Source: an uncultured Bacilli bacterium (lineage in GTDB: Bacteria; Bacillota_I; Bacilli_A; RF39; UBA660). From it: 40,217 bases of DNA. This document shows positions 1 through 22,500 of this stretch, in pieces. Where the stretch lies: the NCBI GenBank assembly GCA_944372205.1, contig CALVYM010000001.1, forward strand, positions 1 to 40,217. Direction: 5' to 3'. How positions within the stretch are numbered: the first letter of the stretch is position 1; every line of letters begins with the position of its first letter. The translations under genes were made by a program, and so were the position numbers. The notes under the pieces were generated by a model. It was not told the DNA's origin and did not search any database. It was given only the letters and a program-made list of their open reading frames with translations.

Positions 1-218
1 ACTTCTTTTAACCATGGATAACTTTTACAAACTTTTGGTATTTCTTTTATTTGTTCATAACATGATAAAGAAATACCTGTTTCTTTATAGCTATTTATTT
101 TCTCTTCTAAAAAATGATTATATACAAATCTAGAGCAACCGATGGTTTGATTGATTAAATTTTTTTGTTCATTATTAGGATATAATCTAAATTGATAACC
201 TTTTAAAATAGTAGTCAT
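1..218 (-). mobile_element. tnpB: 5' part of an IS200/IS605-family tnpB (IS1341-type OrfB, RNA-guided endonuclease TnpB); the gene runs off the window edge
   Basis: Absent from the ORF track because it is cut by the window edge. Translating the minus strand from the ATG at 218 gives MTTILKGYQFRLYPNNEQKNLINQTIGCSRFVYNHFLEEKINSYKETGISLSCYEQIKEIPKVCKSYPWLKEV. This is the classic TnpB N-terminus (K.Y.FRLYPN.EQ, GC.RFVYN, PWLKEV). SD AGGAGGA is at 227-233. Confidence 0.85.
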
Positions 219-313: not shown

Positions 314-1155
314 TTATCTAAAAGTTACTCTTAAAGGGATAAATAAATCGTTACTATTAATTATGCTTTCTAATATTGCACTAGCTTTATGACTACAATT
401 ACTACCTACTAAATACTTACTAATTAATGTATTTAATTCTAATCTTGTATTATCACTAGATAAAGTCATAATACTTCTAAGTAAATATTTAAGGAAGTTA
501 TAATAATCACTTTCTTTATTTAATTCTTCATCATTTTGATTAATTATTGTTCAATCAATGTTTTAAATCTATCTTTTAAAATATTATCTTTATACATCGT
601 ATGAAATTTATCATCAATATTATACATTCCTTTTGTACAATCACTATAGATTAATGGATGCTTGAAAACTTCAAAATTATTGTTAAGTAATTCTTGTTCA
701 ACACCAGAAACTAAATAACTAATATGATATAAAAAGTTATTAGAGCCTTCTTTACTTGCAATGCTTAAAGCTAACATAAATTCATCAATTATTAAATAAT
801 GCTTTAATGAATTATTATAACCGTTTTTACTTAAGAATGTAGAATCTATTGTTGATAATTCATTTATTAGTCTAATTGTTACTTGTTTTTCTATTTCTAA
901 TTTTTTAGTAGATATAAATACTCCTCTTTCTAAAAAGGGATATTTAGCTCTTAATTCTTGTATTAATGTATTAATTTGATTATTATGAATTGCATGAAAA
1001 CTTATTATATCTTCTTCTTTTTTTCTTTCTCTTTTTAATTCTTCTATTGCTCTTTTATATTCTATACTATTTTTCTTATCAATACTATCTAAATATTCTA
1101 ATCTTTGATACAAAGTTCTAATATATGATGCTATATCAATTAAATCACTTATCAT
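314..1155 (-). pseudogene. Fourth tandem member (type A) of the uncharacterised helical paralog family, disrupted by a frameshift
   Basis: The track ORF 544-1155 (203 aa) stops at ...DRFKTLIEQ*. A different frame continues from 544 to the TAA at 314-316 for 76 codons: INQNDEELNKESDYYNFLKYLLRSIMTLSSDNTRLELNTLISKYLVGSNCSHKASAILESIINSNDLFIPLRVTFR. This aligns with the C-terminal third of the intact paralog 1960-2784 (...NFIEYYTNLKYILIAI...RFLKVTFEV). The shift must lie within 544-552, in CAATAA. Confidence 0.75.
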
Positions 1156-1973
1156 TAATTCCTCCTTCTAGCTCCTATTGTTATGTATATAGGTATCAAT
1201 TTATCTTCTTCTTTATGTTTTAAAATTTCTTTAAATGGTTCTTTATTAATAGGTAATTTATCATTATCAATAATACCTTGAATCATCATAATTAATTCTT
1301 CATTAGTTGATAATACTATTAATGAACGAAGCATAACTTGTTCATATAAAATAGCTGCATTATCACTATTACTTAATACATGATTTACTAATTCTCTAAA
1401 ATGTTTAATAAATTCCGATTCGATTTCTTGTTCTTTAGCTAAGTCATGTAATTCCCAAGGTAAATTATAGATAGCTTTAAAATTATCTGTAATCATTGTT
1501 GGATTACTATTAGCAATAAAATTATTATCAATCATTTCTTTTTCTATAACACTTGGAGAAATAAATACTATATCGTATTTTAAATTAATAATATTGGTAT
1601 CTTTATGTTTTTCTAAATACTCATCAAGCATTCTAAGAGCTAAAGATAAAGAATCAATATAAACACCCATAGCAATATTTATATTATAATTAGTACTTCT
1701 ATTTTCTTTGATATTTATATTAAATTTAGTTAAATATCTACACATTAGCATATTATCTATCTTGCAATCTTCTATAAACTTAATAGCTTCATCTTTTTTA
1801 CCAAAATCTACTATTCTTTTAATAACAATTTTTTCCCATTCTATTTTTCTTTTTAATTCAGTAAGTATTTTTTGATATTCAATACTATCTTTATTACTAT
1901 CTAACTTTATTAAACCATTATATAATTCTTGAATAAAGCCACCAAGGATTAATAGTTCTTTAATATCTTCCAT
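1155..1973 (-). CDS. Uncharacterised helical paralog family, member 3 (type B)
   Basis: Track ORF 1155-1985. I prefer the ATG at 1973 (MEDIKELL...) because the TTG at 1985 lies inside the SD GAGGTG. It shares the family N-terminal motif (K[ND]S.EY...L.ELK) and the C-terminal LIPIYI motif. Its stop overlaps the next start (TAATG at 1155). Confidence 0.7.
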   Translation of the reverse strand: MEDIKELLILGGFIQELYNGLIKLDSNKDSIEYQKILTELKRKIEWEKIVIKRIVDFGKKDEAIKFIEDCKIDNMLMCRYLTKFNINIKENRSTNYNINIAMGVYIDSLSLALRMLDEYLEKHKDTNIINLKYDIVFISPSVIEKEMIDNNFIANSNPTMITDNFKAIYNLPWELHDLAKEQEIESEFIKHFRELVNHVLSNSDNAAILYEQVMLRSLIVLSTNEELIMMIQGIIDNDKLPINKEPFKEILKHKEEDKLIPIYITIGARRRN

Positions 1974-2784
1974 TTGGCACCTCAAAAGTTACTTTTAAAA
2001 ATCTTTGCCTTTTTCTATTTGTTATTATATCATTTAATAATTCCTTTGATTTATTTTTGCTATTTATTAAATATTGATTAGTTAGTTCATCTAAATCTTT
2101 TAATAAACTATTACTACATAAAGAATAAATAGCTATTAAAATATATTTTAAATTAGTATAATATTCAATAAAATTATTGATATCTTTATCACTGGCCATA
2201 ATAATTTTTTCTAATATTTTTTTATAGCGATATAAAAGTATTTTATCTTTATATTTTTCATGATATTCATCACTAATATTATATATATCCTTAATTGTTT
2301 CATTATAAATTATTGGATAAGTTGGAACTTCAAAATTATTAGTTAATAAAACTTGTTCAATATCTGGAACTAAAAAACCAATAAGAAATTTTAATCTAGG
2401 TGTATTATTTAAACTTAAAGATAATTCATCAATTGTTAGATATTGACTTAATCCATGTTCATAATCATATTTATTTAAAACTGTTTCAGAAGATATTAAT
2501 TCATTCATTAATCTTAGAGCTATAAGATATTCATCTTTCGTATCTTTTGGAGAAATAGAAATACCATTTTTTAAAAAAGGATATTCTTCTTTTAACTTTG
2601 TTTTTAATTCTCCAAAATGGTTGCGAAAAAGATTCAACATATCTTTTTCAACTTTTATTTCTTTTTCTAATTCTTTAATTAAATTATTATATTCTACTGA
2701 ATTCTTTTGATTATTTTCTTCTAAATATTCTATTTGTTTATATAAATATCTTATATAACTAATAACATATAATAAATCTGTCAT
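1960..2784 (-). CDS. Uncharacterised helical paralog family, member 2 (type A)
   Basis: 274-aa ORF with SD GAGGTGA. It shares YPFL..G..IS.K, RL.NEL, NNFEV and YKD.IL with the pseudogene 314-1155. It overlaps the next gene by 14 nt. Confidence 0.7.
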   Translation of the reverse strand: MTDLLYVISYIRYLYKQIEYLEENNQKNSVEYNNLIKELEKEIKVEKDMLNLFRNHFGELKTKLKEEYPFLKNGISISPKDTKDEYLIALRLMNELISSETVLNKYDYEHGLSQYLTIDELSLSLNNTPRLKFLIGFLVPDIEQVLLTNNFEVPTYPIIYNETIKDIYNISDEYHEKYKDKILLYRYKKILEKIIMASDKDINNFIEYYTNLKYILIAIYSLCSNSLLKDLDELTNQYLINSKNKSKELLNDIITNRKRQRFLKVTFEVPNGRY

Positions 2785-2787
2785 ATT

Positions 2788-3615
2788 TCACCTCGTTCTT
2801 ACATAAATTGGTATTCTTTGATCAAGTTCTAATTTATTTAATATTTCATTTATAAAAGTATGAGATTCATGATATGTTTCATCTTCCAATATGCTTTTTA
2901 AAGCATTAATGAAATTATCTTTATTAGTAACTTGGATAATTATTGCTCTAATAAAACTCATATTATAATAAATTAAATCATAATCAAAAGTATATAAAGC
3001 CAAAACAACAAGTACTTGAATTTTTTCTTTAAAAAGCTCAAATAAAATACTATCTTTATAAATATTATTTATATCATTTGGTATATAAAGAGAAAATAAT
3101 ATATCTGATGCAATCATAGGGTGTTCATTAATTTCATAATTACTAGCCATTATTTCTTCTTCTAGTTCTATATCTTTAATATCAAAATAAGAATAATAAA
3201 TAGATAAAATTAATTTATCTTTTAATTCTGGATGTTCTTTAATAGTTTCAGTAAGAATAGCTAATGATAAAAGATATGTTTCTTTTTCAACTGATGCTTT
3301 TAATGTATAATCAAAAGACTTTGATTGATTCATAGAATCAATTTTATTTAATATTCTTGCTAATATGACATCATCAAATTTACTTGCTTGCTTTTTTAAA
3401 TCATTTACATAACTTATTACTTCATTTACACCATATTTACTTAAAATATTTTTTAATACTTTATTTTCTGTTTCAATTAAATCTTTTAATTTATCTTTAA
3501 ATAATTGATACCTTAAAGAATTTTTAAAAATCTCTAGTTCTTCATCAATTAAAATTTCATAATATTCATGGATTAAATAAATAATTTTTTTTAATTCTAT
3601 TATATCTTCAAACAT
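2788..3615 (-). CDS. Uncharacterised helical paralog family, member 1 (type B), first gene of the array
   Basis: 275-aa ORF with a G-rich SD (AATGGGGGA) 5 nt before the ATG. The C-terminus is RIPIYVRTR, as in member 3. No signal peptide or TM segment. Confidence 0.7.
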   Translation of the reverse strand: MFEDIIELKKIIYLIHEYYEILIDEELEIFKNSLRYQLFKDKLKDLIETENKVLKNILSKYGVNEVISYVNDLKKQASKFDDVILARILNKIDSMNQSKSFDYTLKASVEKETYLLSLAILTETIKEHPELKDKLILSIYYSYFDIKDIELEEEIMASNYEINEHPMIASDILFSLYIPNDINNIYKDSILFELFKEKIQVLVVLALYTFDYDLIYYNMSFIRAIIIQVTNKDNFINALKSILEDETYHESHTFINEILNKLELDQRIPIYVRTR

Positions 3616-3641
3616 AAAAATCCCCCATTAAAGTAATGTAT

Positions 3642-3670
3642 ATATTAGCATAAAACAAATTATTTTTCAA
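3642..3670 (-). promoter_or_regulatory. Promoter of the four-gene paralog array
   Basis: Minus strand reads TTGAAA (3665-3670), a 17-nt spacer, then TAATAT (3642-3647). It lies in the divergent intergenic region shared with the RHH gene. Confidence 0.4.
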
Positions 3671-3748
3671 GAAAAAAGAGATTGTAATCAGGATAATTGA
3701 AACTAAAAACACTTAGTAGCAAAATGGTAGTATAATAGTGAGGTGTTT

Positions 3749-3901
3749 ATGGTTAATAGTCAGATTAGAGTTCCTGATGAATTATGGGATAAGTTAAAAG
3801 AAATTAGTGAAAAGGAAGAGCGAAGTATAAATGCCCAACTCATTTATATCCTAAAAAAATATATTGAGGAGTATGAGAGTAAATTAGAAAAAAATAAATA
3901 G
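3749..3901 (+). CDS. Small ribbon-helix-helix (Arc/CopG/MetJ-type) DNA-binding protein, 50 aa
   Basis: Too short for the ORF track. The product is MVNSQIRVPDELWDKLKEISEKEERSINAQLIYILKKYIEEYESKLEKNK. The pattern matches Arc-like repressors: a beta-strand (QIRVP), helix A, RS.N, then helix B. SD GAGGTG is at 3740-3745, TATAAT at 3731-3736, and a terminator hairpin follows directly. Confidence 0.75.
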   Translation: MVNSQIRVPDELWDKLKEISEKEERSINAQLIYILKKYIEEYESKLEKNK

Positions 3902-3902
3902 T

Positions 3903-3930
3903 AAAAACTTGTTTATAATTGCAAGTTTTT
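3903..3930. terminator. Bidirectional rho-independent terminator between the convergent RHH gene and clpC-like gene
   Basis: AAAAACTTG (3903-3911) pairs with CAAGTTTTT (3922-3930) around a 10-nt loop. A and T tracts flank the stem on both sides. The stop codon of the clpC-like gene (3913) sits in the loop. Confidence 0.6.
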
Positions 3931-6024
3931 TATACTATTTTTTTTATTATATTCAATATATTTATCTAAACCACGGAATCCTTGTTTTTGGTAATCAAAA
4001 TTTGATAAATCAATATCTTTGATATTTTTCTTATTTAAGTAGGCTTTTATATCATCTAATGTAATATCATTATATTCAATAATTGTATTAAATCTAGCTA
4101 TTAATTCTTTAGAAAAAGCAAAGTTATAATTAGTATTTGATTCCATGAAACCTATTTTTTTTGTTCCTTTAATATTACTTGTTGCAAAAATATAAGTGTT
4201 TTTAAAGTTAATTGGTTCACCTTTTGCATTAGTAATTATACCTTCATCAAGGATTTGTAAAAACAAATTTAAAACATTTGGAGATGCTTTTTCTATTTCA
4301 TCAATTAAAATACAAGTATATGGCTCCATTTTTATTTTATCGAATAATCCCCCATCTTCATAGCCGATGTAGCCTGCTGATGCACCAATAAGACGAGTTA
4401 TAGCAATTTCGGAATTAAATTCAGACATATCTATTTTTAAAAGGGGCATATTTAAAAATTTAGCAATTTTTTTTACGGTTTCTGTTTTACCTACTCCAGT
4501 TGAACCAGTAATCATAATTGATAATGGTTTTGTTTTATCATGATTAGTAATAGTAGTAATTATTTTTTTCATAGCATTTTCTTGAGCAAATATGTTATCA
4601 TTTAAATATTTTTCTAATGATGCAAAATCATATTTTAATATTGGAATATTATACTTACGACTTAATAAATTAGTAATATCTTTAGTAGTTATTTTACTTT
4701 GTTGCTTATTTAATTTGTTAATTTTATTAGTAATATTTAATTGTTCTTTATGAAGAAATAAAGCTTTTTTAAAATCATTTTCTTTAACCATTTCTTCTTT
4801 TTCTTTAATAATGTTTTTTTGAACATTTTTTAAATTATTTATTTTATTTAAAGAATAATTATCTACTTCTTTCATTGCACAAACGGAATCTAGAATATCT
4901 AGAGATTTATCAGGATTTTTTTTATCTACAATGTATGTAGTAGTAAGATTAACAATATCTTTAATATTTTCTTTAGTAATTTTAATATTGTAATGTTTTT
5001 CAAAAGATGGTTTTACTTTATTTAAAATATTGATTGTTTCTTCTTTGGTGGGTTCAAGCACTCTAATTAATTCAAACCTTCTTGTTAAAGCTTTATCTTT
5101 TAGGAAAAAATGATTATATTCATTAGTAGTTGTAGCACCAATAATTTTTATTTTGCCGCGGGCTAAATAGGGTTTTAGAATATCACTAGCATTTATGGCC
5201 CCTTCTGCTCCACCAGCATTAGTAATGGTATGAATTTCATCAATAAATAAAATTATATCTGGATTATTTTCTAATTCCTTAATTACTTTATTTAGTTTTT
5301 CTTCAAATTCCCCACGATATTTTGTTCCGGCGACTAGAGCCCCCATTTCTAAAGAAATTATTTTTTTATTTTGAATTAATGCGGGAACCTCTTTTCTTTT
5401 AATTCTTCTAACTAATTCTTCAACTATAGCTGTTTTACCTACTCCAGCATCTCCAACAAGTAAAGGATTATTTTTATTTTTTCTAATTAAAGTTTCAATA
5501 ATTAAAGATATTTCTTTATCTCTTCCTATTACTTGTTCATTCATATCAGTTGAATCCATTAAATCTTTACCAATATTAAGTATTTCTAACTTTTTAGTAC
5601 TTTTTTTTTCATTATTTTTTAATTCATCATATAATTTTTCTAAATTTATATCCATACCATATAGTAATCTTATAGCTATTCCTTCACCTTCTTCAAGTAA
5701 AGAAGTAAATAAATGAAGAGCATTTAGTTCTTCTTTTTTTTCATTTGCCTCTTCTAAGCTTAGGTTAATTATTCTTTTAAGTAATGGTGTATATAAAATA
5801 TAATTACTTTTTTTAGAAGAAGAACCTACAACTAAAATAAGTTCTTTACGAAATGCCTCATAAGTTAAATCATATTTTTTAGCTATATTACTAATAGTAG
5901 TAGAATTCTTTAATAAACTTAATAATAAATGCTCACTTCCCACATATGGGTGATGAAGTGATAACATTTCTTCTTCAGCACATTTAAATATTTTACTTAT
6001 TTCTAAACTATATTTATCAAACAT
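3913..6024 (-). CDS. clpC: ClpC/ClpE-like class I Clp/Hsp100 ATPase with two AAA+ modules
   Basis: Clp_N repeats (GSEHLLLSLL, EEGEGIAIRLL). D1 has Walker A GDAGVGKTAIVEEL and Walker B ILFIDEIHT, plus KYRGEFEEKL. D2 has Walker A GSTGVGKTETVKK and Walker B ILIDEIEKASPNVLNLFLQILDEG. An IGF tripeptide (KKIGFMES) sits where the ClpP-docking loop is expected. At 703 aa it is shorter than typical ClpC. Confidence 0.85.
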   Translation of the reverse strand: MFDKYSLEISKIFKCAEEEMLSLHHPYVGSEHLLLSLLKNSTTISNIAKKYDLTYEAFRKELILVVGSSSKKSNYILYTPLLKRIINLSLEEANEKKEELNALHLFTSLLEEGEGIAIRLLYGMDINLEKLYDELKNNEKKSTKKLEILNIGKDLMDSTDMNEQVIGRDKEISLIIETLIRKNKNNPLLVGDAGVGKTAIVEELVRRIKRKEVPALIQNKKIISLEMGALVAGTKYRGEFEEKLNKVIKELENNPDIILFIDEIHTITNAGGAEGAINASDILKPYLARGKIKIIGATTTNEYNHFFLKDKALTRRFELIRVLEPTKEETINILNKVKPSFEKHYNIKITKENIKDIVNLTTTYIVDKKNPDKSLDILDSVCAMKEVDNYSLNKINNLKNVQKNIIKEKEEMVKENDFKKALFLHKEQLNITNKINKLNKQQSKITTKDITNLLSRKYNIPILKYDFASLEKYLNDNIFAQENAMKKIITTITNHDKTKPLSIMITGSTGVGKTETVKKIAKFLNMPLLKIDMSEFNSEIAITRLIGASAGYIGYEDGGLFDKIKMEPYTCILIDEIEKASPNVLNLFLQILDEGIITNAKGEPINFKNTYIFATSNIKGTKKIGFMESNTNYNFAFSKELIARFNTIIEYNDITLDDIKAYLNKKNIKDIDLSNFDYQKQGFRGLDKYIEYNKKNSIKNLQL

Positions 6025-6060
6025 AGAATCCTCCCTATATTAATTCTATGTTAATAATGT

Positions 6061-6714
6061 TTATCTAGTCCCAAAATTATTCATATCTATATCGCTTTTA
6101 ATTTCTTTTTGACTACATGGATAGATTTTTAAAATGTTTGATGCTAACGAATAATTAAAATTATATAAAATACGATAGATATTTTTTAAATCTTTCATAA
6201 GTAAAGAGTTTTTAATTGTAACATCTAGGGAATTTGTTTTATCAGATATTTTTAAATGAGCACTAGTTAAAGGATAATTACCACTAGTTTTAATTTTACT
6301 TTTTTCTTTTATTACATCACTAGCAAAGTGAATTGTTTTTATTTCCTTATCTATAGTTGTAGCATAATATTCAGTAAAGTAATATTCAAATGTTTCATCT
6401 TCTTTTTTATCTCCCCAGATTATTTTTAAAGTATTTTCTAGAATAGAAATACTAATATTTAATTCTTTAGAAAATATTTCAATTTCACTATCTTTATCTA
6501 GGGAAGGATCCATAAATATTCTGGTACTTTTATTCTTTAATAAATTAAGTAATTGTCTTATAAATAATTCATCAATTATCCGTGGATTAACATTAAATAA
6601 AGCTAAAAACTTTTCAACTGGAATGGATAGTTCTTGAAGGCAAGCAAAAATTGATTTATCTTCTAAATCACATTTCTTATTAATAGAGTTAATTAATTTC
6701 CAAACTTCTCTCAT
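6061..6714 (-). CDS. Hypothetical cytoplasmic protein immediately upstream of the clpC-like gene
   Basis: Track ORF 6061-6756. The first 14 codons overlap the terminator of the upstream gene, so I prefer the ATG at 6714 (MREVWKLINS...). Neither start has a recognisable SD. A TATAAT 4 nt upstream of the ATG hints at a leaderless transcript. I recognise no motifs. Confidence 0.5.
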   Translation of the reverse strand: MREVWKLINSINKKCDLEDKSIFACLQELSIPVEKFLALFNVNPRIIDELFIRQLLNLLKNKSTRIFMDPSLDKDSEIEIFSKELNISISILENTLKIIWGDKKEDETFEYYFTEYYATTIDKEIKTIHFASDVIKEKSKIKTSGNYPLTSAHLKISDKTNSLDVTIKNSLLMKDLKNIYRILYNFNYSLASNILKIYPCSQKEIKSDIDMNNFGTR

Positions 6715-6737
6715 ATATTTATTATATATTAAAAAGC

Positions 6738-6768
6738 CCAAGAAAAAAAGAACCAAATTGGTTCTTTT
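6738..6768 (-). terminator. Rho-independent terminator after the distal YfcC-type carrier gene
   Basis: AAAAGAACC (6746-6754) pairs with GGTTCTTTT (6760-6768) around a 5-nt loop. A T-run follows on the minus strand. The hairpin starts at the stop codon. Confidence 0.65.
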
Positions 6769-8527
6769 ACATATATGTTACTACTGTAAATAATACAAGT
6801 AGAATTATAAGCATGCCTACAACAAATAACCAAATGTATTTTAACCATGACTTATAGTCTATTTTCATAAGAGAAAGACCGATTAGTAAAATGGCACTGG
6901 TTGGCATGAATAATCCGACAAGGCCATACATTGATGTATAAATGGCATGAACAATATCTAATTCATTTGAATATATAGCATTAATAAATGCTCCAACTGA
7001 ATATCCAGTGTAACCTAAATCTTGACTAAATACTGAACTTATAAAAGCAGATGCTGATGTTGTAAATGGATTAAATCCTTCAACTAAGTTGAATAGCCAA
7101 TTACTAATTGTAGATGTAAATGGAATACTTACGATAATACCAAACACCATATATGAAGCTACAAATAAAGCAATTGGTTTGAATATTTTTTTAACACCAT
7201 CATAGAAGCTTTGAATAAATTCATCAACTTTCATGCGATATAAGAATGCTAATATTATGGCCATTATAATAAAGGCACTACATAACATAAATACATAATC
7301 AAATTCTCCGAATGCTGCAGCTCTTTGACCAAGAATATAACTCATAATTGTAAAGTCTTCTACTGGGGCAAGAGTTGTTAGCCATTCATGGAATTCATTA
7401 AATATAGTTATGCCAAAATAATCATTCCATGATATGTAACCTAATATGATGATTACCATCATTAAGAATAGAATTATGGCAGTAGGAATAGCATTTTTCT
7501 TCTTAGATGTTTCAACTTTAAATGGATCATCTTCAATTTCACTATTCTTTGTATTTTTCTTTGTTTCACTTAAAACTTTTTTAAGACGCATACAAATGAA
7601 GAAGTTATATAATACTATAGTAACTGCTGCAATTATAAAACGGTAAGTTAAACCGGTGTTAAAGTCAGTAGATAAGTAAACACTAAATGAGTTAACTCCT
7701 TCTGTACCATATGTTGCTCCAAGGAAACCAACAAGTATTGAACCAAAAGTTACAATAAATGCAGATAATTTGTCCAAATTCATTTTAAGTAGAATACTTA
7801 CAAAGAATGGAACAAATGCTAGAACAACAAAGCTTTGAGTAAACAATGATGTTAATACAAATAAGAATGCTGAAACTATTACTGAAAACACAATAGCGTG
7901 TTTCTTTAATTTATTAGCTATAGCACTAACTAATCTTTGATAGCCACTAATTTTAGATAAAACGCCATATACACCACCAAGAACAAATAAGAATATTACT
8001 TTGTCCATTACATAGTATAGGGCATTATACATTGATATACTGATATCAACAATACCTACTCTACTTATACCATAATCATAGAAATCTCCACCATTGAATT
8101 GTCCATATGGTATTATCCATGTGAATATTATGGTTGTTAAAACAAAGAATAGAACTGATTTAGCTAAACGATGATCTTCGGAAGTGATGGTAATCATTAA
8201 ACCACCAACTACAAAGGAAATCAAAGCTATTAGTTTTAAAATTAAGTTAATATTAGTATCAGTTACAAATATTGCTGCAGCTACTAATGAGCATGCTAAA
8301 GCAATTAATATTGAACCAGCTAAACCAACTTTAGTTAGTTTTTCTTTTAAGTTTTTAAAAATAAGCAAATAAATACCTATAATTAAGAAAACTGAACCAA
8401 CAATTTTTAAAACCATATCAGGTGTAGTTGCATCAACGAAGTAAGATACAGCAAATAAAATGATTGCTATAACATCCATTAAAGCTCCAATGCATTTTAA
8501 CATCCCATGTTTTTCAATTATCTTCAT
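6767..8527 (-). CDS. YfcC/DcuC-superfamily membrane carrier, divergent copy with an extra N-terminal multi-TM extension
   Basis: 586-aa polytopic membrane protein. Segments such as VLGGVYGVL...LKKHAIVFSVIVSAFLFVLTS and MPTSAILLIGLSLMKIDYKSWLKYIW parallel E. coli YfcC and the neighbouring paralog 8617-10062. It has its own TATAAT and SD (AAGGAGGT) after a terminator. Confidence 0.65.
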   Translation of the reverse strand: MKIIEKHGMLKCIGALMDVIAIILFAVSYFVDATTPDMVLKIVGSVFLIIGIYLLIFKNLKEKLTKVGLAGSILIALACSLVAAAIFVTDTNINLILKLIALISFVVGGLMITITSEDHRLAKSVLFFVLTTIIFTWIIPYGQFNGGDFYDYGISRVGIVDISISMYNALYYVMDKVIFLFVLGGVYGVLSKISGYQRLVSAIANKLKKHAIVFSVIVSAFLFVLTSLFTQSFVVLAFVPFFVSILLKMNLDKLSAFIVTFGSILVGFLGATYGTEGVNSFSVYLSTDFNTGLTYRFIIAAVTIVLYNFFICMRLKKVLSETKKNTKNSEIEDDPFKVETSKKKNAIPTAIILFLMMVIIILGYISWNDYFGITIFNEFHEWLTTLAPVEDFTIMSYILGQRAAAFGEFDYVFMLCSAFIIMAIILAFLYRMKVDEFIQSFYDGVKKIFKPIALFVASYMVFGIIVSIPFTSTISNWLFNLVEGFNPFTTSASAFISSVFSQDLGYTGYSVGAFINAIYSNELDIVHAIYTSMYGLVGLFMPTSAILLIGLSLMKIDYKSWLKYIWLFVVGMLIILLVLFTVVTYM

Positions 8528-8561
8528 TTTTTACCTCCTTAACAAAATTATAACACTCTAA

Positions 8562-8593
8562 CAAAAGAAAAAAAAGCAAATATTGCTTTTTTT
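8562..8593 (-). terminator. Rho-independent terminator after the arc operon carrier gene
   Basis: AAAAGCAA (8572-8579) pairs with TTGCTTTT (8583-8590). A T-run follows on the minus strand. Confidence 0.55.
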
Positions 8594-8616
8594 CACAGAT
8601 TTTTCCAACTTTTTAT

Positions 8617-10062
8617 CTAAAATACTAAAGTTATTAATTCTAAAACTAGAATATTGGCAACGGCAATAGTTAAAACTACTTTAAATGCCCATTTAAACCA
8701 AGTTGTATATTCAACTTTAGCTAAAGCTAGACCACCCATTATTGCTCCACATGTTGGAGTAATTAAATTAACTAGACCATTAGCTGATACAAATGTCATA
8801 ATTGTTGCTTCAACATTATAGCCTAAAGTACTTGCAAGACCACCCATGATTGGAGTCGATAAGACTGCAAGACCACTAGATGATGGTACAAGTATTGATA
8901 GGACAACATGAAGTAAATAATTTAGTGGAACAAAAGCAAGTTCTGGTAAGTTGGAAAGTAAATCAGCAGAATTATAGATAATATAGTTATCTAAGTATGT
9001 TACTCCCATTAAGACACTTGCTCCACGAGCAACAGCAATTATTAAGATAACTGCAATCATATCATTGGCACCATCAACGAATGTATCAACAATTTCTTTT
9101 TCTTTAAAGCGATTAATTATACCTATAATAATAGCCATTACAAAGAACCAAACTGAAGCTTCAGCAAAGTACCAACCACCTAAAGATGTACCAGTAAGCC
9201 AGCCTGTAAATTTATCAAATATAGTTACATTAAAGTCTCCCCAAGGAATAAAGCCAATAATCATGACTACAAATGTTAAACCAAGTAATATTAAAGTTAT
9301 TCTTTGCTTAATACTTAATTTTACATCTTTTTTCTTATCTTTAGAATCTTCTTCTTTAATAAATTTCTTTTCCATTGCTTTTTGTTCTTGTAAAGATAGG
9401 AATGTTGAACCCTTATCTTCTTGAACTTTTTTAGCATAATTCATGACAAAGATAATTGATATTAAAAGAGTTGTAATCCATAAAATTAGTCCAGTAAATA
9501 TCAATAGTCCTTGATTGGCAGTAACACCTTCTGGTAAACTACTTACAGCAACACCAACCGCAAAAGGGTTAACTGTTGAACCTAAAACACCAGAACCAGC
9601 TCCTAATAAAACTATTGCTGAACCAACAATGGTATCATATCCAGCAGCAACCATTGTAGCAGCAAGTAAAACATAAAAGCCTACTGTTTCTTCTAGCATT
9701 CCATAAGTTGTACCTCCAACAGAAAAGATAAACATTAAAATAGGTATTAATACTATTTCGTTACCTTTTAGCTTTTTTACTAAAACTTTGATACCAGTTT
9801 CTAAAGCTCCTGTTTTATTGATAATTGCCAAAAACCCACCTAAAATTAAAATGAACACACATACATCAACTGCATCACTAAAGCCTAAGATTGGTGATAG
9901 TAAAAAGTCTGATAGTTTGGCTCCGACAGTACCACTACCATCAACAAGTATGCCATCAACAAACTGAGCATCAGGTAAAATGTGTGAAAATATCGCTAAT
10001 ATAATTATCAAAATAAAGATAATTGAAAAAGCAGATAACATAAATTTTTTCCTTTTTGCCAT
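8617..10062 (-). CDS. YfcC-family putative basic amino acid (arginine/ornithine) antiporter
   Basis: 481-aa polytopic protein. FIFSVGGTTYGMLEETVGFYVLL...GYD and SSSGLAVLSTPIMGGLA...LITPTCGAIMGGLALAKVEYTTWFKW align by eye with E. coli YfcC. It is the last gene of the arcABC operon, starting 3 nt after the arcC stop. Confidence 0.75.
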   Translation of the reverse strand: MAKRKKFMLSAFSIIFILIIILAIFSHILPDAQFVDGILVDGSGTVGAKLSDFLLSPILGFSDAVDVCVFILILGGFLAIINKTGALETGIKVLVKKLKGNEIVLIPILMFIFSVGGTTYGMLEETVGFYVLLAATMVAAGYDTIVGSAIVLLGAGSGVLGSTVNPFAVGVAVSSLPEGVTANQGLLIFTGLILWITTLLISIIFVMNYAKKVQEDKGSTFLSLQEQKAMEKKFIKEEDSKDKKKDVKLSIKQRITLILLGLTFVVMIIGFIPWGDFNVTIFDKFTGWLTGTSLGGWYFAEASVWFFVMAIIIGIINRFKEKEIVDTFVDGANDMIAVILIIAVARGASVLMGVTYLDNYIIYNSADLLSNLPELAFVPLNYLLHVVLSILVPSSSGLAVLSTPIMGGLASTLGYNVEATIMTFVSANGLVNLITPTCGAIMGGLALAKVEYTTWFKWAFKVVLTIAVANILVLELITLVF

Positions 10063-10064
10063 TT

Positions 10065-10997
10065 TTATCCTCCTATTATTCTTGTGCCATTATTATTTTC
10101 TAGAGCTTCATTTGCTTTATCTAATGAAGTAATTATTGCATATTTATCTTTATCAACAAAGTTTAAGCAAGCTTCTATTTTAGGTAGCATACTGCCTTTG
10201 GCAAATTCGCCTTTTTCTATATATTTTAACGCTTCACTTTTCTTAATAGTATCTAAACCTATTTTATCTTTACTTAAATAATTTAGATATACTTTATCAA
10301 CAGAGGTTAAAATAAGTAGTATATCAGCATCTATTAACTTAGCAAGTAAAGCACTTGATAAGTCTTTGTCTATTACAGCATCAATTCCTTCTAAAAGCTC
10401 TTTTTTATCTTTTTTGATAACAGGTATTCCACCACCCCCACAAGCAATAACTAAAACATTTTCTTTTAAAAGTGTGGCTATTGCTCTTTTTTCAATAATA
10501 TCTTTAGGTATCGGCGATGGCACTATTCGCCGATATCCAGCATCAGGAATAAAAGTAAATTCATAGCCTTCTTCTTTTTTTAATTTTTGCATTTCTTCTT
10601 CTTTGTAATATGCTCCAATTGGTTTTGTCGGATTTTGGAAGGCAGGATCACTTGAATCCACTAATACTTGTGTTATAACGGTTATACAATCTTTTTTTAC
10701 TTTTTGTCTTTCCATTTCATCTTGCAGTGCTTGTTGCATTTGATAACCGATATAGCCTTGAGACATACTCCCACATTCTGCAAAAGGCATATGAGGAGTC
10801 TTTTTTTTAGCACTAGCATATTCCATTGCTAGAGCTATTTGACCAACTTGTGGTCCATTACCATGGGTAATTACAATATCATGGCCTTCTTTTATTAATT
10901 TAACGATAATTTTAGAAGCTTTTTCTAAATTATCCATTTGTATTTCCGGATTATCTCCGAGAGCATTTCCCCCAAGAGCAACTACTATTTTACTCAT
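10065..10997 (-). CDS. arcC: Carbamate kinase
   Basis: [14 protein letters not shown]...[10 protein letters not shown]...ACGGGGIPV are carbamate kinase signatures. It overlaps the end of arcB by 8 nt. Confidence 0.9.
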
Positions 10998-11988
10998 CTT
11001 TATCCTTTAAAGTAGCATACATTACCGCTTTTATAGTATGCATTCTATTTTCGGCTTCATCAAAGACTTTAGAATATTTAGATCTAAATACTTCATCTGT
11101 TACTTCCATTTCTTTTAATCCAAATTTCTTGTAAATATCTTCACCAATTGTAGTATTTAAATCATGAAATGAAGGTAAGCAATGTAAAAATATTACATCT
11201 TGAGAAGCATTATTTAATACATTCATATTTACTTGATAATTCTTAAGTAAATTTAGCCGTTCTTCCCAAATATTATCTGCTTCTCCCATTGATACCCAAA
11301 CATCTGTATATATACAATTGGCATCTTTAGTAGCCTTAATTATATCTTCTTCAAATTCAATTTGACAATTTGTTGATATAGCAATATCTTTACAAATATC
11401 AACAAGTTCTGTACTGGGCCATAAACTTTTAGGGGCCGCAAGAGTATAATTTACTCCTAGTTTGCTACAAGCAACCATTAAAGAATTAGCAACATTATTT
11501 CTACCATCACCACAAAAGACTAATTTTAGACCTTTAAGATGACCAAAGTTTTCTTTAATAGTTAAAAAATCAGCAAGCATTTGGGTTGGATGAAATTCAT
11601 TAGTTAAACCGTTCCATACTGGAACACCGGCTGATGCAGCTAAATTTTCAACAATGCTTTGAGAAAATCCTCGATATTCTATTCCATCATACATTCTTCC
11701 TAATACTTTTGCAGTATCTTCAATGCTTTCTTTTTTACCCATTTGACTAGATTGGGGATCTAGAAATGTAACATGCATTCCTAAATCATAAGCCGCAACT
11801 TCAAAGGCACATCTAGTTCTAGTTGATGTTTTTTCAAATAAAAGAGCAATGTTTTTTCCTTTTAAATATTCATGAGGAATATTATTTTTCTTCTTATTTT
11901 TAAAGTCAGCACTTAAATCTAATAAATATTCAATTTCTTCTTTAGTATAATCTAATAGTTTTAAAAAACTTCTTTGTGATAAATTCAT
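10990..11988 (-). CDS. arcB: Ornithine carbamoyltransferase (catabolic)
   Basis: [17 protein letters not shown] and HCLP motifs. The track start at 12021 lies inside arcA. I prefer the ATG at 11988 ([15 protein letters not shown]...), which has SD GGGAGGA and a TAATG overlap with the arcA stop. Confidence 0.9.
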
Positions 11989-13229
11989 TAATCCTCCCGA
12001 TATAGTGGCATACTCATACATCTAGGACCACCACGACCGCGGGAAAGTTCAGCACTAGACATTTCAATTACTTTAATACCATGTGACCTTAATACTTCAT
12101 TAGTAATATTGTTCCGATTATATACAACTACAACACCTGGAGCAATACATAAAGTATTTGTTCCATCGTTCCATTGTTCTCTTTGACTAGCAACATCATC
12201 ACCACCAGCACATGGAATAATTGTAACTTTTACTCCTAGATATTTAGTTAAAATATTTTCTAGAGTATCATTTATTTCTTTAACATTTAAATCTTCATCA
12301 CTATTAGGGTCATTCCCTTCAGTAATTTCAAATACTTGCAATGTTCCCATAATTCCTGGATGATATGTAAATTTATCAACATCTATTTGAGTAAATACTG
12401 TATCTAGATGCATAAATGCTCTTGATTCAGGAATATTAAAAGCTAATATAGTATCTATTTTACAATCTTTATCTTTAAATAAATTTTTAGCTAATTTATC
12501 AATTGCTCCTGCTTCGGTTCTTTGAGAAATACCTATGGCTAGGACATGATCATTTAAATTTAGAACATCCCCACCTTCAATATGCCAATCTAAATTACGA
12601 TCATAATAGCGATCAACTTTAGCTTTAAATTTTGGATGATATTTAAAAATATAATCTGCGTAGATGGTTTCTCTGTTTCTTGTAACAGAATACATCTTAT
12701 TTAAAACTATACCACTACCTACACTAGCAAATGGATCACGCGTAAAATACAGATTAGGCATTGGTTCAACAATAAAATCTGTTTCATCAGTTACTAAATC
12801 AACTAATGATTTTTCCATTACCCTTTTACTTTTGTCAAGTTCATATATTTGAACTCCTTCCATAGTCTTTAAAACAAATTCCTTTGTTTCTTCAATACTC
12901 ATCAAATAATCAAATACTAATTCACGATATTTGGGAGTATTAACACCCGCTTCACTGATGAATTGTCTTAAAAATTTTTCTTTAATTTCGGGATTATAAT
13001 CTAATGTTTCAGTCATTAAATCTTCAAGATAATAAACTTTAACATCATTATCTCTTAAAATTTGAACAAATTCATCATGTTCCGCTTGGGCTACTTTGAG
13101 ATAAGGAATATCATCAAATAACAAGCGATGTAGTGTATCGGGAGTTAAATTAAGTAATTCCTTACCTGGACGGTGAACTAAAACTTCTTTTAATGGTTTT
13201 ATTTCACTCTTAACATTAATTACACTCAT
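11988..13229 (-). CDS. arcA: Arginine deiminase
   Basis: 413 aa. It begins with a typical ADI N-terminus ([22 protein letters not shown]) and ends with the catalytic Cys context ([10 protein letters not shown]). SD AAGGAGGAG. Confidence 0.9.
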
Positions 13230-15901: not shown

Positions 15902-16876
15902 CTAATTACTTAAAATGCTTAAACGACTTAAATTTATAGCATTTTCATTATCGATTATATCTTTAATAGCTGTATTAATACATTCTAGTGATCCATCTTC
16001 ACTAATATAGGTGTAACTTAAAGCTATTAATTCTTCTTCTAAATCTTTGCTTCCTAAAAGTAAAATTGATTTCATTATATTTTTGGCAAATTCTATTTCA
16101 AATAATTTATCAACTGATAATGTATCTTCATTATCAAAACTAATTAATTTTTCTAAATATTTTAAATAATATTTTTTTAAAAAAGCAGCACTGGCTTCTT
16201 TACTAGTATCACTTGATATACCATAAAAATAATTAATAATATCTGATGATACAATATAATCATTAACAAAAGAAAAATTACTTTGAAGCATTTTATCTTC
16301 AATAAAAGGAATTACATAACATAAATCATAAAAGTTATGAATTAGTACATTTTTTAATAAAGGATTACTTGATTGATAGTTTATTTGACCAAGAATATTT
16401 AATAAATCTTGCATTAAATAATTTTGTAGTGATGTAACAAAACTTGAATCTTTAATAATTTTTATTTTCATTTCATCATCAAAAGTATATTTACGCATTA
16501 AAGGATTTAAAAATAATTCATCAAAATTATTAATTATATAAAATATAAAGGTATTAATTAATCTAATTATTACAGAATTTTTAATGGTAATTTTATCTGG
16601 TAGTATTAAACTTAGAGAATCGTCTTTTGTATCAAGATATTTTTCTTTTAAATATTTTATTATTGTAGTTATATCAGAATAATTTTTGGGTATTTTTTTT
16701 AATTCTTCATTAACAAAGTATTTTAATGATTTTATTTCTTTAACGGCTTCTAAATATTCTTTACTATCTTTTAAATTATTAATGTCTATTTCAAATAATA
16801 TGGCATATTTTTCTTTTATAGATAATAATAATGAAGTAATATTATCTAATATTTTTATAACTTCTAGATTTAACAT
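15902..16876 (-). CDS. Uncharacterised helical paralog family, dispersed member 5 (324 aa)
   Basis: Family N-terminal motif (...DINNLKDSKEYLEAVKEIKSLK), IIRLINTF, MLQSNFSF...SSDIINYFYGIS and LKKYYLKYLEKL all align with the tandem members. Its ATG overlaps the lysS stop (TAATG at 16874-16878). Confidence 0.7.
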   Translation of the reverse strand: MLNLEVIKILDNITSLLLSIKEKYAILFEIDINNLKDSKEYLEAVKEIKSLKYFVNEELKKIPKNYSDITTIIKYLKEKYLDTKDDSLSLILPDKITIKNSVIIRLINTFIFYIINNFDELFLNPLMRKYTFDDEMKIKIIKDSSFVTSLQNYLMQDLLNILGQINYQSSNPLLKNVLIHNFYDLCYVIPFIEDKMLQSNFSFVNDYIVSSDIINYFYGISSDTSKEASAAFLKKYYLKYLEKLISFDNEDTLSVDKLFEIEFAKNIMKSILLLGSKDLEEELIALSYTYISEDGSLECINTAIKDIIDNENAINLSRLSILSN

Positions 16877-20671: not shown

Positions 20672-21598
20672 TTAGTTTTTTTCAAAAGGATTTAAAGCTT
20701 TACAAATAGCCTTTTTAGGAGATCTGGTTAGTATAAAATTATCTTTTTTTACTTTATCTCTAGTTATACTTACATTATCAATATAAAACTTTTCAATTAA
20801 AGTTATAGCAAAATCATTAAGTTCATCTAAATCTTCTGTAAAATCATCTAAGACATAATTACCACGCATTTCTTCAACTATTTCACTAATTGGAGTACTC
20901 TCAATATAAGATATCACATCTTGCCATGAAGAATCTAAAATATCTTTTTCTTGTTCAATAATTAAATTTTTATAAACATTAGCAATAATGTATTGATAAA
21001 TTAAAGCATCATCTATTCCCGAATTTTGGACTTCAATACGGAAATTATTGATAAAATCTTCATCACTAGCATTATCTGAAAGTTCAGATTCTGTTATTTC
21101 ATATGTACTTAGTATAGTTATAATTGCCTCTTCTTCAGTAGTTAAATCTTGTAATATTTCTTGTAATGCAAATATACCAAACGGATTGATTGATAAATAA
21201 GTTGCTAAACTATCTAAAACATTTTCATAAGCTAAATGTTTTTCTAAATAATTTTTCATGGTAAATTCAATAAATTCTTTTAATATATTTTCATCTATTT
21301 CTCTATTTATTTTCTTTTCCAAAGGAAGTAGTTCAATATAATAAGTTAGTGCTTCATCTAATTCAAAATCTTCATATAATTTAGTTGCATAGTAAAATGA
21401 TACGTAAGCATCAGAATAAACAATTAATTTAGTAATTATATAAGCTAATGAAGGATTAATTATTTCCTTAAATTCTTGATTTATTATTTCTTTTGTTAGA
21501 TATTTACTTAAATCTTGAACATAATCTTCACTATTATCATAAAAGTATTTAACTTTTCTTTCTAATCTACTCCTACAAATATTAAATATATTATCCAT
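20672..21598 (-). CDS. Hypothetical acidic cytoplasmic protein
   Basis: Track ORF extends to 21640. I prefer the ATG at 21598 (MDNIFNI...), which has SD GGGGGT 4 nt upstream and does not overlap the upstream gene. No TM segments; D/E-rich. Confidence 0.6.
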   Translation of the reverse strand: MDNIFNICRSRLERKVKYFYDNSEDYVQDLSKYLTKEIINQEFKEIINPSLAYIITKLIVYSDAYVSFYYATKLYEDFELDEALTYYIELLPLEKKINREIDENILKEFIEFTMKNYLEKHLAYENVLDSLATYLSINPFGIFALQEILQDLTTEEEAIITILSTYEITESELSDNASDEDFINNFRIEVQNSGIDDALIYQYIIANVYKNLIIEQEKDILDSSWQDVISYIESTPISEIVEEMRGNYVLDDFTEDLDELNDFAITLIEKFYIDNVSITRDKVKKDNFILTRSPKKAICKALNPFEKN

Positions 21599-21615
21599 TT
21601 TTACCCCCATTTTTA

Positions 21616-22401
21616 TTAATCCATTTGTGATGAATTCCAATAATAAGTATCAGTATTACTATTATATTTGAATGTATGTTCATAAATTGTTAGATTATTT
21701 AAATAATCATTGATAGAAAAATCATTAGTATAGGTGATATTACTTAAAGAATCTCTAGCCTCATCATTATAACATAGATTAGTGGTTGTATCACATTTTA
21801 AATAATACTCATAGATTTTTATTGCATCTTCTGATACCGCATAGCGGGTTATGGATTTAAATTCGACAAAGTCTTTAGTAGTTTCTTCTAAAGTATCATA
21901 TATATAATAATAATTATCAACAAAAATAGCTTTAACTTTGTTGGTATAAGAAAATTCTCTAGGTTTAAGAGTTACTTCTGGTCCTAAAAGTAAATTAGTA
22001 ACTTCTTCAAATTTAGATAAACTTACTTTATAAAGTGGTGTATAGTTTAAGGAATTATTTACTACCCTATTTAGTTCTTCCTTAGTTAAAACTTCTAGAG
22101 AAGATTTATCATTATTAAGAATATATTGATAAACCATAGCATTAACATATTGCGGATTTTGATTAACGATAGTTTTACCAACATAATGAGTAGAATGAAT
22201 ACCACTATATTCTACTTCATTGTTTTCTAGAAAATAAGAATATAGTTGATGAATTGTTTCTTCATCTATTTTTTTTGAAATATTGTGTTCATCATTATTG
22301 CTAGTTTGATCTTCGAAATCAAATAATTTTATAAAAAGAACGCTTAAGGATATTACTAATATAGTAACTATAATAATCATTATAATTTTTTTCTTGTTCA
22401 T
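21616..22401 (-). CDS. Hypothetical N-terminally membrane-anchored extracytoplasmic protein
   Basis: The track start at 22428 is a GTG. The ATG at 22401 (MNKKKIIMIIIVTILVISLSVLFI...) has SD GGTGAT. There is a single N-terminal TM segment and the rest is predicted to lie outside. Confidence 0.6.
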   Translation of the reverse strand: MNKKKIIMIIIVTILVISLSVLFIKLFDFEDQTSNNDEHNISKKIDEETIHQLYSYFLENNEVEYSGIHSTHYVGKTIVNQNPQYVNAMVYQYILNNDKSSLEVLTKEELNRVVNNSLNYTPLYKVSLSKFEEVTNLLLGPEVTLKPREFSYTNKVKAIFVDNYYYIYDTLEETTKDFVEFKSITRYAVSEDAIKIYEYYLKCDTTTNLCYNDEARDSLSNITYTNDFSINDYLNNLTIYEHTFKYNSNTDTYYWNSSQMD

Positions 22402-22460
22402 AGAATCACCATAATTAAATTTTATCACGAGTTATTAACATTTACAAGAAATATTAAAAT

Positions 22461-22500
22461 TTTTTTAAAAGGAAAATATGAATGCCAAAGCATTCATATT
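22461..22500 (-). terminator. Hairpin or terminator overlapping the stop of 22499-23890
   Basis: An 11-bp stem, AATATGAATGC (22475-22485) with GCATTCATATT (22490-22500), around a 4-nt loop. TTCCTTTT follows on the minus strand. Confidence 0.5.

Follow-up and report, generated by a model that had tools for sequence, protein, structure and literature searches.

Can four tandem genes of no recognizable kind, lying between a small regulator gene and an insertion sequence (IS) and next to the gene of an unfoldase, be read as one system with these neighbors, and what could their products do? The question is raised by one end of a 40,217-nucleotide stretch of contig CALVYM010000001.1 (assembly GCA_944372205.1) from an uncultured bacterium of the Bacilli (RF39, UBA660), which we call the window. 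A preliminary description of the window had read the four genes as an ABAB array of an unrecognizable helical family, wired to a divergent ribbon-helix-helix (RHH) regulator and sitting beside a ClpC-like unfoldase. Our results support this description in part: it correctly recognized a new helical family and the duplication of a two-gene module, and was wrong in that the RHH regulator and ClpC do not define a system with the array. It is firmly established that the proteins belong to an undescribed, lineage-restricted family, soluble and all-alpha, with a confident model for which solved structures offered no match, and that in the window a tandemly duplicated A-B module is expressed as an operon of its own in a variable stretch of the chromosome. 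As to function, we tentatively favor, with a probability of about 40%, a binding-type complex of these soluble, acidic, all-alpha paralogues, with partly redundant subunits.

A family without described relatives and its duplicated module

Profile and structure searches were run on the family, and no known family or fold emerged. At curated thresholds, Pfam-A and NCBIfam yielded no family for the array proteins A1, B1, A2 and B2 or for a fifth family member of the window, the C copy; the best scores were 10-17 bits and differed between paralogues. PADLOC and PHROG gave the array proteins nothing better than E 0.004, ten distant family members matched no Pfam, NCBIfam, PADLOC or PHROG model, and across 49 and 56 family members no model was matched by more than 2. 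The model TIGR04450 ("immunity/bacteriocin") was rejected as the identity of the family, since it scored 17.5 bits and was seen in only 1 of 56 members. The MecA family model found no match at E up to 1 for the four array proteins or at E up to 0.1 for 49 family members, sequence profile searches of the PDB with the family were empty, and literature searches on RF39 with ClpC, and on Onthocola, turned up nothing relevant.

The family is small. With B1 as the query, 5.8 billion proteins searched by word index yielded only 10 close clusters, all from metagenome assemblies and all unnamed, and an exhaustive profile search of 1.84 billion representatives retrieved 124 clusters (50% identity) at E up to 0.001, most of them of 300-350 aa and matched over their full length. 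The sole name on any member is "hypothetical protein", for example from Ca. Faecisoma merdavium. All hosts are AT-rich Bacilli assemblies from gut or rumen (Ca. Onthocola, Ca. Faecisoma and uncultured Bacilli/Tenericutes metagenome-assembled genomes), sampled from the gut of human, chicken and other animals and from the rumen. By tblastn, 50,697 phage records contained no relative of B1 and 72,556 plasmid records none of A1, and a scan of IMG/VR with the B-type profile found nothing.

The claim that the proteins are helical is borne out by AlphaFold2 models built from alignments of 49-56 family sequences, which are all-alpha for both A1 (pLDDT 92.8, pTM 0.88) and B1 (pLDDT 92.5, pTM 0.89). Both models have about 12 helices in the same order, and in both the IPxY/VTF strand at the C-terminus is paired with a strand of two residues that follows the NNFE motif. 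The predicted fold is confident, single-domain and non-repetitive; an internal repeat or solenoid was rejected, as hhalign of the alignment halves gave no signal. We required of a fold match a Foldseek E at or below 0.001 or a TM-score at or above 0.5 in the PDB or BFVD. The best values were E 0.27 (PDB) and 0.68 (BFVD) for A1 and E 0.6 (PDB) for B1, and TM-scores against the PDB did not exceed 0.33 for either. The proteins are soluble, with no transmembrane segments, as described, and with pI values of 4.4-6.2; charge complementarity between A and B was rejected, every member being acidic.

The family is otherwise about 20% identical, and a set of charged or polar residues (in A1 numbering E26, K31, E50, R87, D112, K140, Y141, E152, N158/N159, R223 and D265) is conserved at 57-93%. 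The conserved polar positions are E, K, R, D, Y and N, and the family alignment holds no conserved His or Cys; A1 lacks Trp altogether. Several conserved positions are replaced in the paralogues of the window (K140Y, D112E and F160Y in A1; E to V and K to F in the C copy). A pairing of a pseudo-enzyme A with an active B was rejected, because these substitutions do not sort by A or B type.

Read in the standard bacterial code, the window carries the array on its minus strand in the order A1-B1-A2-B2 (ORF list and tree; Table 1), and its four open reading frames (ORFs) lie where the preliminary description had placed them, the fourth being frameshifted. A2 is listed with alternative starts (1155-1985/1973), of which ATG 1973 is favored because a GAGGTG Shine-Dalgarno sequence precedes it. 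B2 is split into two ORFs, 544-1155 and 314-469. Relative to the intact 280-aa gene of a conspecific contig, L016 (related contigs are given such labels here), the window lacks one A (GAAAC to GAAC at 550-551), which could reflect a real mutation or a homopolymer sequencing error. Genetic code 4 was rejected as the cause of the break, this being a 1-nt deletion relative to L016 with no in-frame TGA. The genes are packed tightly, with a 3-nt gap between A1 and B1, a 14-nt overlap between B1 and A2 and a TAATG overlap between A2 and B2, and each is preceded by its own Shine-Dalgarno sequence of the GAGGTG/AAGGAGG type. The shared motifs hold with one correction. K[ND]S.[ER]Y occurs in all four proteins, the A type ends in IPIY and the B type in VTF, and YPFL and RL.NEL are present in B1 and B2, but the NNFEV/NYEI block is found in only three of the four, A2 carrying NNFIAN instead.

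Two lines of evidence address how the four genes are related. First, in blastp with composition correction B1 and B2 share 38% identity (E 1e-56), A1 and A2 27% (E 1e-18), and A-B cross pairs reach E 1e-9 to 7e-4. Hidden Markov models (HMMs) of A-only or B-only orthologues, drawn from other genomes, score targets of the opposite type at 14-55 bits, whereas 200 shuffles of each target reach 0.5-10 bits at best. Secondly, a neighbor-joining tree of family members taken from the loci and from databases joins A1 to A2, and B1 to B2, as sister clades, and orthologues of each of these four subclades are found in several species. The array genes are thus true paralogues, and the ABAB order arose by tandem duplication of one A-B gene pair. 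The duplication is older than the split of the window species from Ca. Onthocola stercorigallinarum (L002/L004) and from UMGS910 (L005), a metagenome-assembled genome labeled "uncultured Tenericutes".

Table 1. Features of the array and its surroundings, with positions in the window.
Feature	Position	Strand	Description	Basis
A1 (= M1)	2788..3615	-	275 aa, array gene 1, C-terminal end ...RIPIYVRTR	ORF, family HMM E 1e-54, A1 clade
B1 (= M2)	1960..2784	-	274 aa, C-terminal end ...LKVTFEVPNGRY	ORF, B1 clade
A2 (= M3)	1155..1973	-	272 aa, 3' half recombinant, variable segment	ORF, Shine-Dalgarno, identity profile
B2 (= M4)	314..1155	-	intact form 280 aa, frameshifted in the window	ORFs, alignment to intact L016 copy
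Fifth family member, C type	15902..16876	-	324 aa, start overlaps lysS stop codon (TAATG)	family HMM E 9e-41
Array promoter (predicted)	3642..3670	-	TTGAAA-17-TGCTAATAT, extended -10, native to the locus	scan; conserved in relatives
Arc-type RHH gene	3749..3901	+	50 aa, likely start ATG 3749, alternative GTG 3743	Pfam Arc
Putative RHH promoter	3697..3725	+	TTGAAA (3697-3702)-17-CAAAAT (3720-3725)	scan
AT-rich hairpin, terminator-like	3903..3930		AAAAACTTG...CAAGTTTTT, between convergent clpC and RHH	sequence reading; G-C pairs too few for a scan call
ClpC-like unfoldase	3913..6024		703 aa	Clp_N, AAA, AAA_lid_9, AAA_2 (Pfam)
TnpB (IS605-family OrfB), 5' part	1..218	-	predicted promoter 243-271; strain-variable insertion between B2 and PNP	99% DNA identity to L016

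The array as a transcription unit and its neighbors

The array is an independent transcription unit, that is, an operon with its own predicted promoter. This promoter, which had been proposed before, was recovered by the scan and is conserved in relatives, where the clpC stop, a hairpin, a TTGTCA-17-TGGTAATAT promoter homologous to that of the window, a Shine-Dalgarno sequence and the A1 start follow one another in that order. A second hairpin in the relatives spans the stop codon of the last B gene and is followed by a T-run, and PNP, downstream of the array, has its own promoter. Rfam recognized no RNA element in the window at gathering thresholds.

The divergent RHH gene does not belong to this unit. 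It is of Arc type as described, since its product passes the Pfam model PF03869 (24.4 bits, gathering threshold 20.4), which places it in the Arc/MetJ RHH superfamily, and it matches Arc-like repressor families of PHROG at E 4e-7 to 3e-6. Sixty-five blocks of the collection index the exact 50-aa product, whose gene stands between clpC and A1 in all six contigs listed. The supposed wiring to the array, however, is not supported: L001, L002, L004 and L007 lack the gene in the homologous intergenic region despite the same array promoter, and the promoter with its leader is retained in L001, L002 and L004. Close homologues lie at other loci. An 88%-identical copy in L029-L032 stands divergent from a large fn3 surface-protein gene beside Band_7/NfeD, and a 69% homologue in L033-L035 occupies the repressor position of an integrated element encoding a Rep_OBD protein. 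DNA similarity between the window and L029-L032 (about 6950-7130 there) is limited to 3700-3876, at 83% identity; it covers the RHH promoter and coding sequence and ends short of the array promoter. The RHH gene is thus a small self-contained promoter-plus-gene cassette of about 180 nt, inserted here in a species-specific manner and elsewhere at other sites. The spacer of the putative RHH promoter contains a palindrome, ACTAA-N6-TTAGT at 3702-3717, which, as a candidate auto-operator, suggests that the gene is autoregulated. Because only 26 nt separate the -35 boxes of the two back-to-back promoters, control of the array by the RHH protein is possible; conservation lends it no support, and a search for operator repeats common to both promoters returned nothing convincing.

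The ClpC-like protein, with a Clp_N domain and two AAA modules, is a class I Clp/Hsp100 AAA+ protein; it scores 472 bits with the ClpA model TIGR02639, below the equivalog cut-off, and an IGF tripeptide suggests docking to ClpP. In L001, L002/L004, L007 and the conspecific contigs the gene order is the arginine deiminase (ADI) operon, two DcuC-type carriers, a 217/231-aa protein of no known family, clpC, the array, PNP and PGM, on to ileS. The array content varies within this frame: A1-B1-A2-B2 in the window, L016 and L002/L004, A1-B1 in L001 and L007, A1-A2-B2 with B1 missing in L005, and a single B-type gene in L003 and L006. In L018-L020, which belong to the window species, the array reads A1-B1-A2, and a deletion scar preserves the final codons of B2 together with its terminator. 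Conservation of the array in related genomes is thereby confirmed: in seven lineages it keeps a syntenic, vertically inherited position upstream of PNP-PGM, in 1-4 copies. In L003 a CDF transporter, and not clpC, stands before the array; L006 shows the same pattern of ORFs, with none of ClpC size ahead of the array, and in L005 the array lies 4 kb from clpC. PNP-PGM, and not clpC, is thus the neighbor that stays constant. A 703-aa ClpC-like gene does lie beside the array of the window, as had been noted, but a functional link does not follow, the adjacency being lost in L003, L005, L006 and distant members.

Upstream of clpC, after a 36-nt gap, the gene at 6061-6756 (minus strand; called with 217 aa from ATG 6714 in conspecific contigs) has a product with no Pfam, NCBIfam or PDB match. 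A terminator-like hairpin at 6746-6768 overlaps its longer TTG start. In Bacillus, ctsR/mcsA/mcsB lie upstream of clpC, and this gene, in the equivalent position, may have a stronger claim than the array to be a partner of ClpC. Further upstream, 6767-13229 (minus strand) holds a complete arginine deiminase pathway (ADI, OTCase, carbamate kinase) and two DcuC-family carriers. Such carriers also neighbor family pairs in L008 and L015, probably through inherited gene order.

Away from this locus the family is found in varied company. Pairs lie after lysS and about 3.3 kb upstream of a ClpC-like gene in L008, between dinB and pheST in L022 and adjoining a DcuC carrier in L015, a trio follows a Tad-like operon in L013, and L011 has singletons. 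In the largest subfamily (346 aa) the gene occurs once, surrounded by unrelated housekeeping genes, and most subfamilies are single-copy genes in housekeeping contexts. At the distant loci examined, no conserved partner gene was found besides the family's own paralogues. The C copy, which brings the family to five copies within 17 kb of the window, directly follows lysS in three lineages (window, L023, L008) and is probably co-translated with lysyl-tRNA synthetase. The three members of L013 (2126-8963) come directly after a Tad/Flp-like pilus operon with an RcpC-like protein, a CpaF ATPase and unannotated 301- and 262-aa proteins; their host is a more distant relative, probably spore-forming, with CotE present. 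Elsewhere in the window, 20672-23890 (minus strand) holds genes of 322, 270 and 463 aa without Pfam match, adjoining one for a 523-aa sortase-domain protein. A similar unannotated block is kept in L023 (973-5194) and may be a lineage-specific, possibly cell-surface, set.

The array proteins evolve about four times faster than their neighbors. Between the window species and L007 the neighbors share 67-93% protein identity, A1 37% and B1 34%, and the nonsynonymous divergence (dN) is 0.60-0.68 for A1 and B1 versus 0.14-0.18 for ClpC and PNP. At shorter distances, the ratio of nonsynonymous to synonymous divergence (dN/dS) is 0.28-0.57 for the family versus 0.06-0.19 for ClpC, PNP and PGM, so that the array genes are under purifying selection, much weaker than that on the neighbors. 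Recombination is active at the distal end of the array. Along the 3' half of A2 (about 1660 to 1162), identity between the window and the three-gene strains falls from 0.99 to 0.78, and dS of B2 between the window species and UMGS910 is 0.034, whereas that of the adjacent PNP is 0.495, which indicates a recent exchange of B2 between lineages.

The clpC-PNP interval as a whole is variable: copies are gained, lost and exchanged, and insertions accumulate (the RHH cassette, IS256, IS605/TnpB, DUF3800 and a YhcG-like nuclease). The window is very AT-rich, with 19-22% G+C across its first 4 kb compared with 25-35% across conserved genes. The array does end at an IS element, the IS605-family TnpB fragment of Table 1. 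The full 383-aa TnpB of L016 has HTH_OrfB_IS605, OrfB_IS605 and Cas12f1-like_TNB domains, which assigns it to IS200/IS605. L016 carries, in addition, an IS256-type transposase between RHH and clpC (10421-11635), and its TnpB lies with DUF3800 between B2 and PNP (4332-6465); L018-L020 lack IS256, TnpB and DUF3800. In L005 a YhcG-like PDDEXK nuclease gene (DUF1016_N and YhcG_C) lies between clpC and the array, flanked by two skipping-rope RNAs (Rfam RF02924; 55.9 and 43.1 bits) at 4069-4156 and 5620-5700. L016 carries a G+C-rich structured element of 211 nt (4980-5190) immediately past tnpB, with 95% identity to L005 9401-9609, between B2 and PNP, where there is no tnpB. The element has no Rfam match at gathering threshold and is probably the right end or omega-RNA region of IS605, left as a relic in L005.

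What the array proteins may do

According to the reading that we favor, the array proteins would act by binding rather than by metal-dependent catalysis, and the co-translated A and B paralogues would probably form homo- or hetero-oligomers. Duplication may have made the subunits partly redundant; some strains have B2 deleted or with a frameshift, and L005 lacks B1. The RHH protein would most likely repress its own promoter and would not be a regulator dedicated to the array. We hold each of these steps with low confidence, and several points weigh against them. The preference for binding over catalysis would follow solely from the absence of recognizable catalytic residues, and about nine charged residues, 78-93% conserved in a family of some 20% identity, would fit an active site or a ligand pocket too. 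For all-alpha folds, Foldseek is a weak tool. Nor is an A-B heteromer needed everywhere, and obligate pairing of A with B is weakened, because L003 and L006 have only a B-type gene at the locus and the largest subfamily is single-copy. Finally, the fast evolution, the copy-number variation and the recent exchange of B2 may fit a role in conflict at least as well.

Such a role, which the preliminary description had raised as immunity or anti-defence, would make the array an orphan islet of immunity or defence/anti-defence genes in a variable chromosomal hotspot, its paralogues diversifying under an arms race. We regard it as unlikely, although several observations fit it: the fourfold amino-acid divergence relative to the neighbors, the raised dN/dS, a copy number of 1 to 4 that varies even within species, the exchange of B2 and of the 3' half of A2 between lineages, and an interval that also collects IS256, TnpB, DUF3800, the PDDEXK nuclease and the Arc-type cassette. 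This support is indirect. The neighbors of the array are clpC, PNP, PGM, lysS, DcuC, ADI-pathway genes and IS elements, with no toxin or secretion gene among them, and the family has no conserved toxin, secretion or nuclease partner. The PADLOC, PHROG, phage, plasmid and IMG/VR searches brought nothing, and the weak TIGR04450 match is confined to a single member. Moreover, most subfamilies are single-copy among housekeeping genes, the C copy is translationally coupled to lysS, and dN/dS stays below 1. In a broader and equally doubtful picture, the array would be a new-fold, rapidly diversifying module of reduced-genome gut Bacilli, its proteins serving as conflict binders of the immunity or defence type or as lineage-specific specificity factors of ClpC, and the ClpC-PNP interval would be an unrecognized variable islet with duplication, interspecies exchange and rewiring by small mobile regulator cassettes.

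It is quite unlikely that the array proteins are adaptors, regulators or dedicated substrates of the neighboring unfoldase which, in a reduced lineage, replace adaptors of the MecA/YpbH or McsB type. ClpC adaptors do occur as paralogues, for example MecA and YpbH. In the window, L001, L002, L004, L007 and L016-L021 the array follows clpC directly on the same strand, and the L008 pair, too, is near a ClpC-like gene. However, clpC and the array are set apart by a hairpin and an independent promoter, L003, L005 and L006 do not keep the adjacency, and no clpC lies near the members in L011, L013, L015, L022 and L024-L027. Neither MecA nor any other Pfam family is matched, the linkage can be explained by the inherited order lysS...clpC...PNP, and the conserved 217/231-aa gene directly upstream of clpC is the better candidate by position.

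Very unlikely, in turn, is an unrecognized all-alpha enzyme or small-molecule binder, with a pocket formed by the conserved E, K, R, D, Y and N and with substrates that vary among the paralogues. The conservation of charged and polar residues in so divergent a family would suit it, as would a confidently modeled, single-domain, non-repetitive fold. Against it stand the lack of conserved His or Cys and of a metal or cofactor motif, the lack of conserved pathway neighbors, the replacement of several "conserved" residues in the window paralogues, and a near-neutral amino-acid rate that is unusual for enzymes. That the ORFs are mere AT-rich open frames with compositional similarity, as a G+C content favoring long K/I/N/E-rich ORFs might suggest, is refuted by cross-type HMM scores above all 200 shuffles, orthologues kept at dN/dS below 1 and family-profile matches in 124 clusters, as well as by pLDDT values above 92 from so few sequences.

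Comparison with known systems

If the confident all-alpha models are correct, the family, and probably its fold, has no described relative and is confined to uncultured, reduced-genome gut Bacilli, which are common in human and animal microbiomes. It would then offer a compact and testable case of lineage-specific gene innovation by module duplication, and a candidate for either a conflict system or a cellular function specific to the lineage. The RHH and ClpC cues that suggested a "system" call for caution, as they come down to a mobile cassette and an inherited gene order. Measured against known families and folds the array proteins are new; as biology, they are one of many dark, lineage-specific families, and nothing yet links this one to a long-standing question.

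Among known systems, MecA and YpbH of Bacillus resemble the array proteins in being small, soluble, cytoplasmic paralogues, and the latter lie beside a ClpC-type unfoldase. They differ in that the array proteins lack a Pfam MecA match and a fold match, form a separate transcription unit and have lost the adjacency in several relatives. The RHH protein compares with the Arc/Mnt/CopG repressors, given its passing of the Pfam Arc threshold, the palindrome within the spacer of its own putative promoter, and homologues divergent from operons of an integrated Rep-encoding element. It departs from them as a solitary cassette of about 180 nt with no toxin or element partner, found beside unrelated genes at two or more chromosomal sites.

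With the Esx pairs and PE/PPE proteins the array shares all-helical products and adjacent, translationally coupled A-B pairs in which the pair is the unit of duplication. The likeness is an analogy of gene organization only: the array proteins match no Pfam model, including WXG100 and LXG, A1 has no Trp, no type VII secretion system (T7SS) genes occur at the loci examined, nothing points to secretion, and the array proteins are three times larger than Esx. The orphan immunity-gene arrays by polymorphic-toxin and T7SS loci of Firmicutes, for example of the DUF600/EsaG type, differ in other respects, since the window array has no nearby toxin or secretion genes and no match to an immunity or defence model, and the family, of about 275-350 aa, occupies single-copy housekeeping contexts in most lineages and is not on mobile elements. 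In common with the array, however, they have tandem paralogues that overlap or abut, a copy number that varies within species, and the rapid divergence and recombinational exchange that are seen in the window array too.

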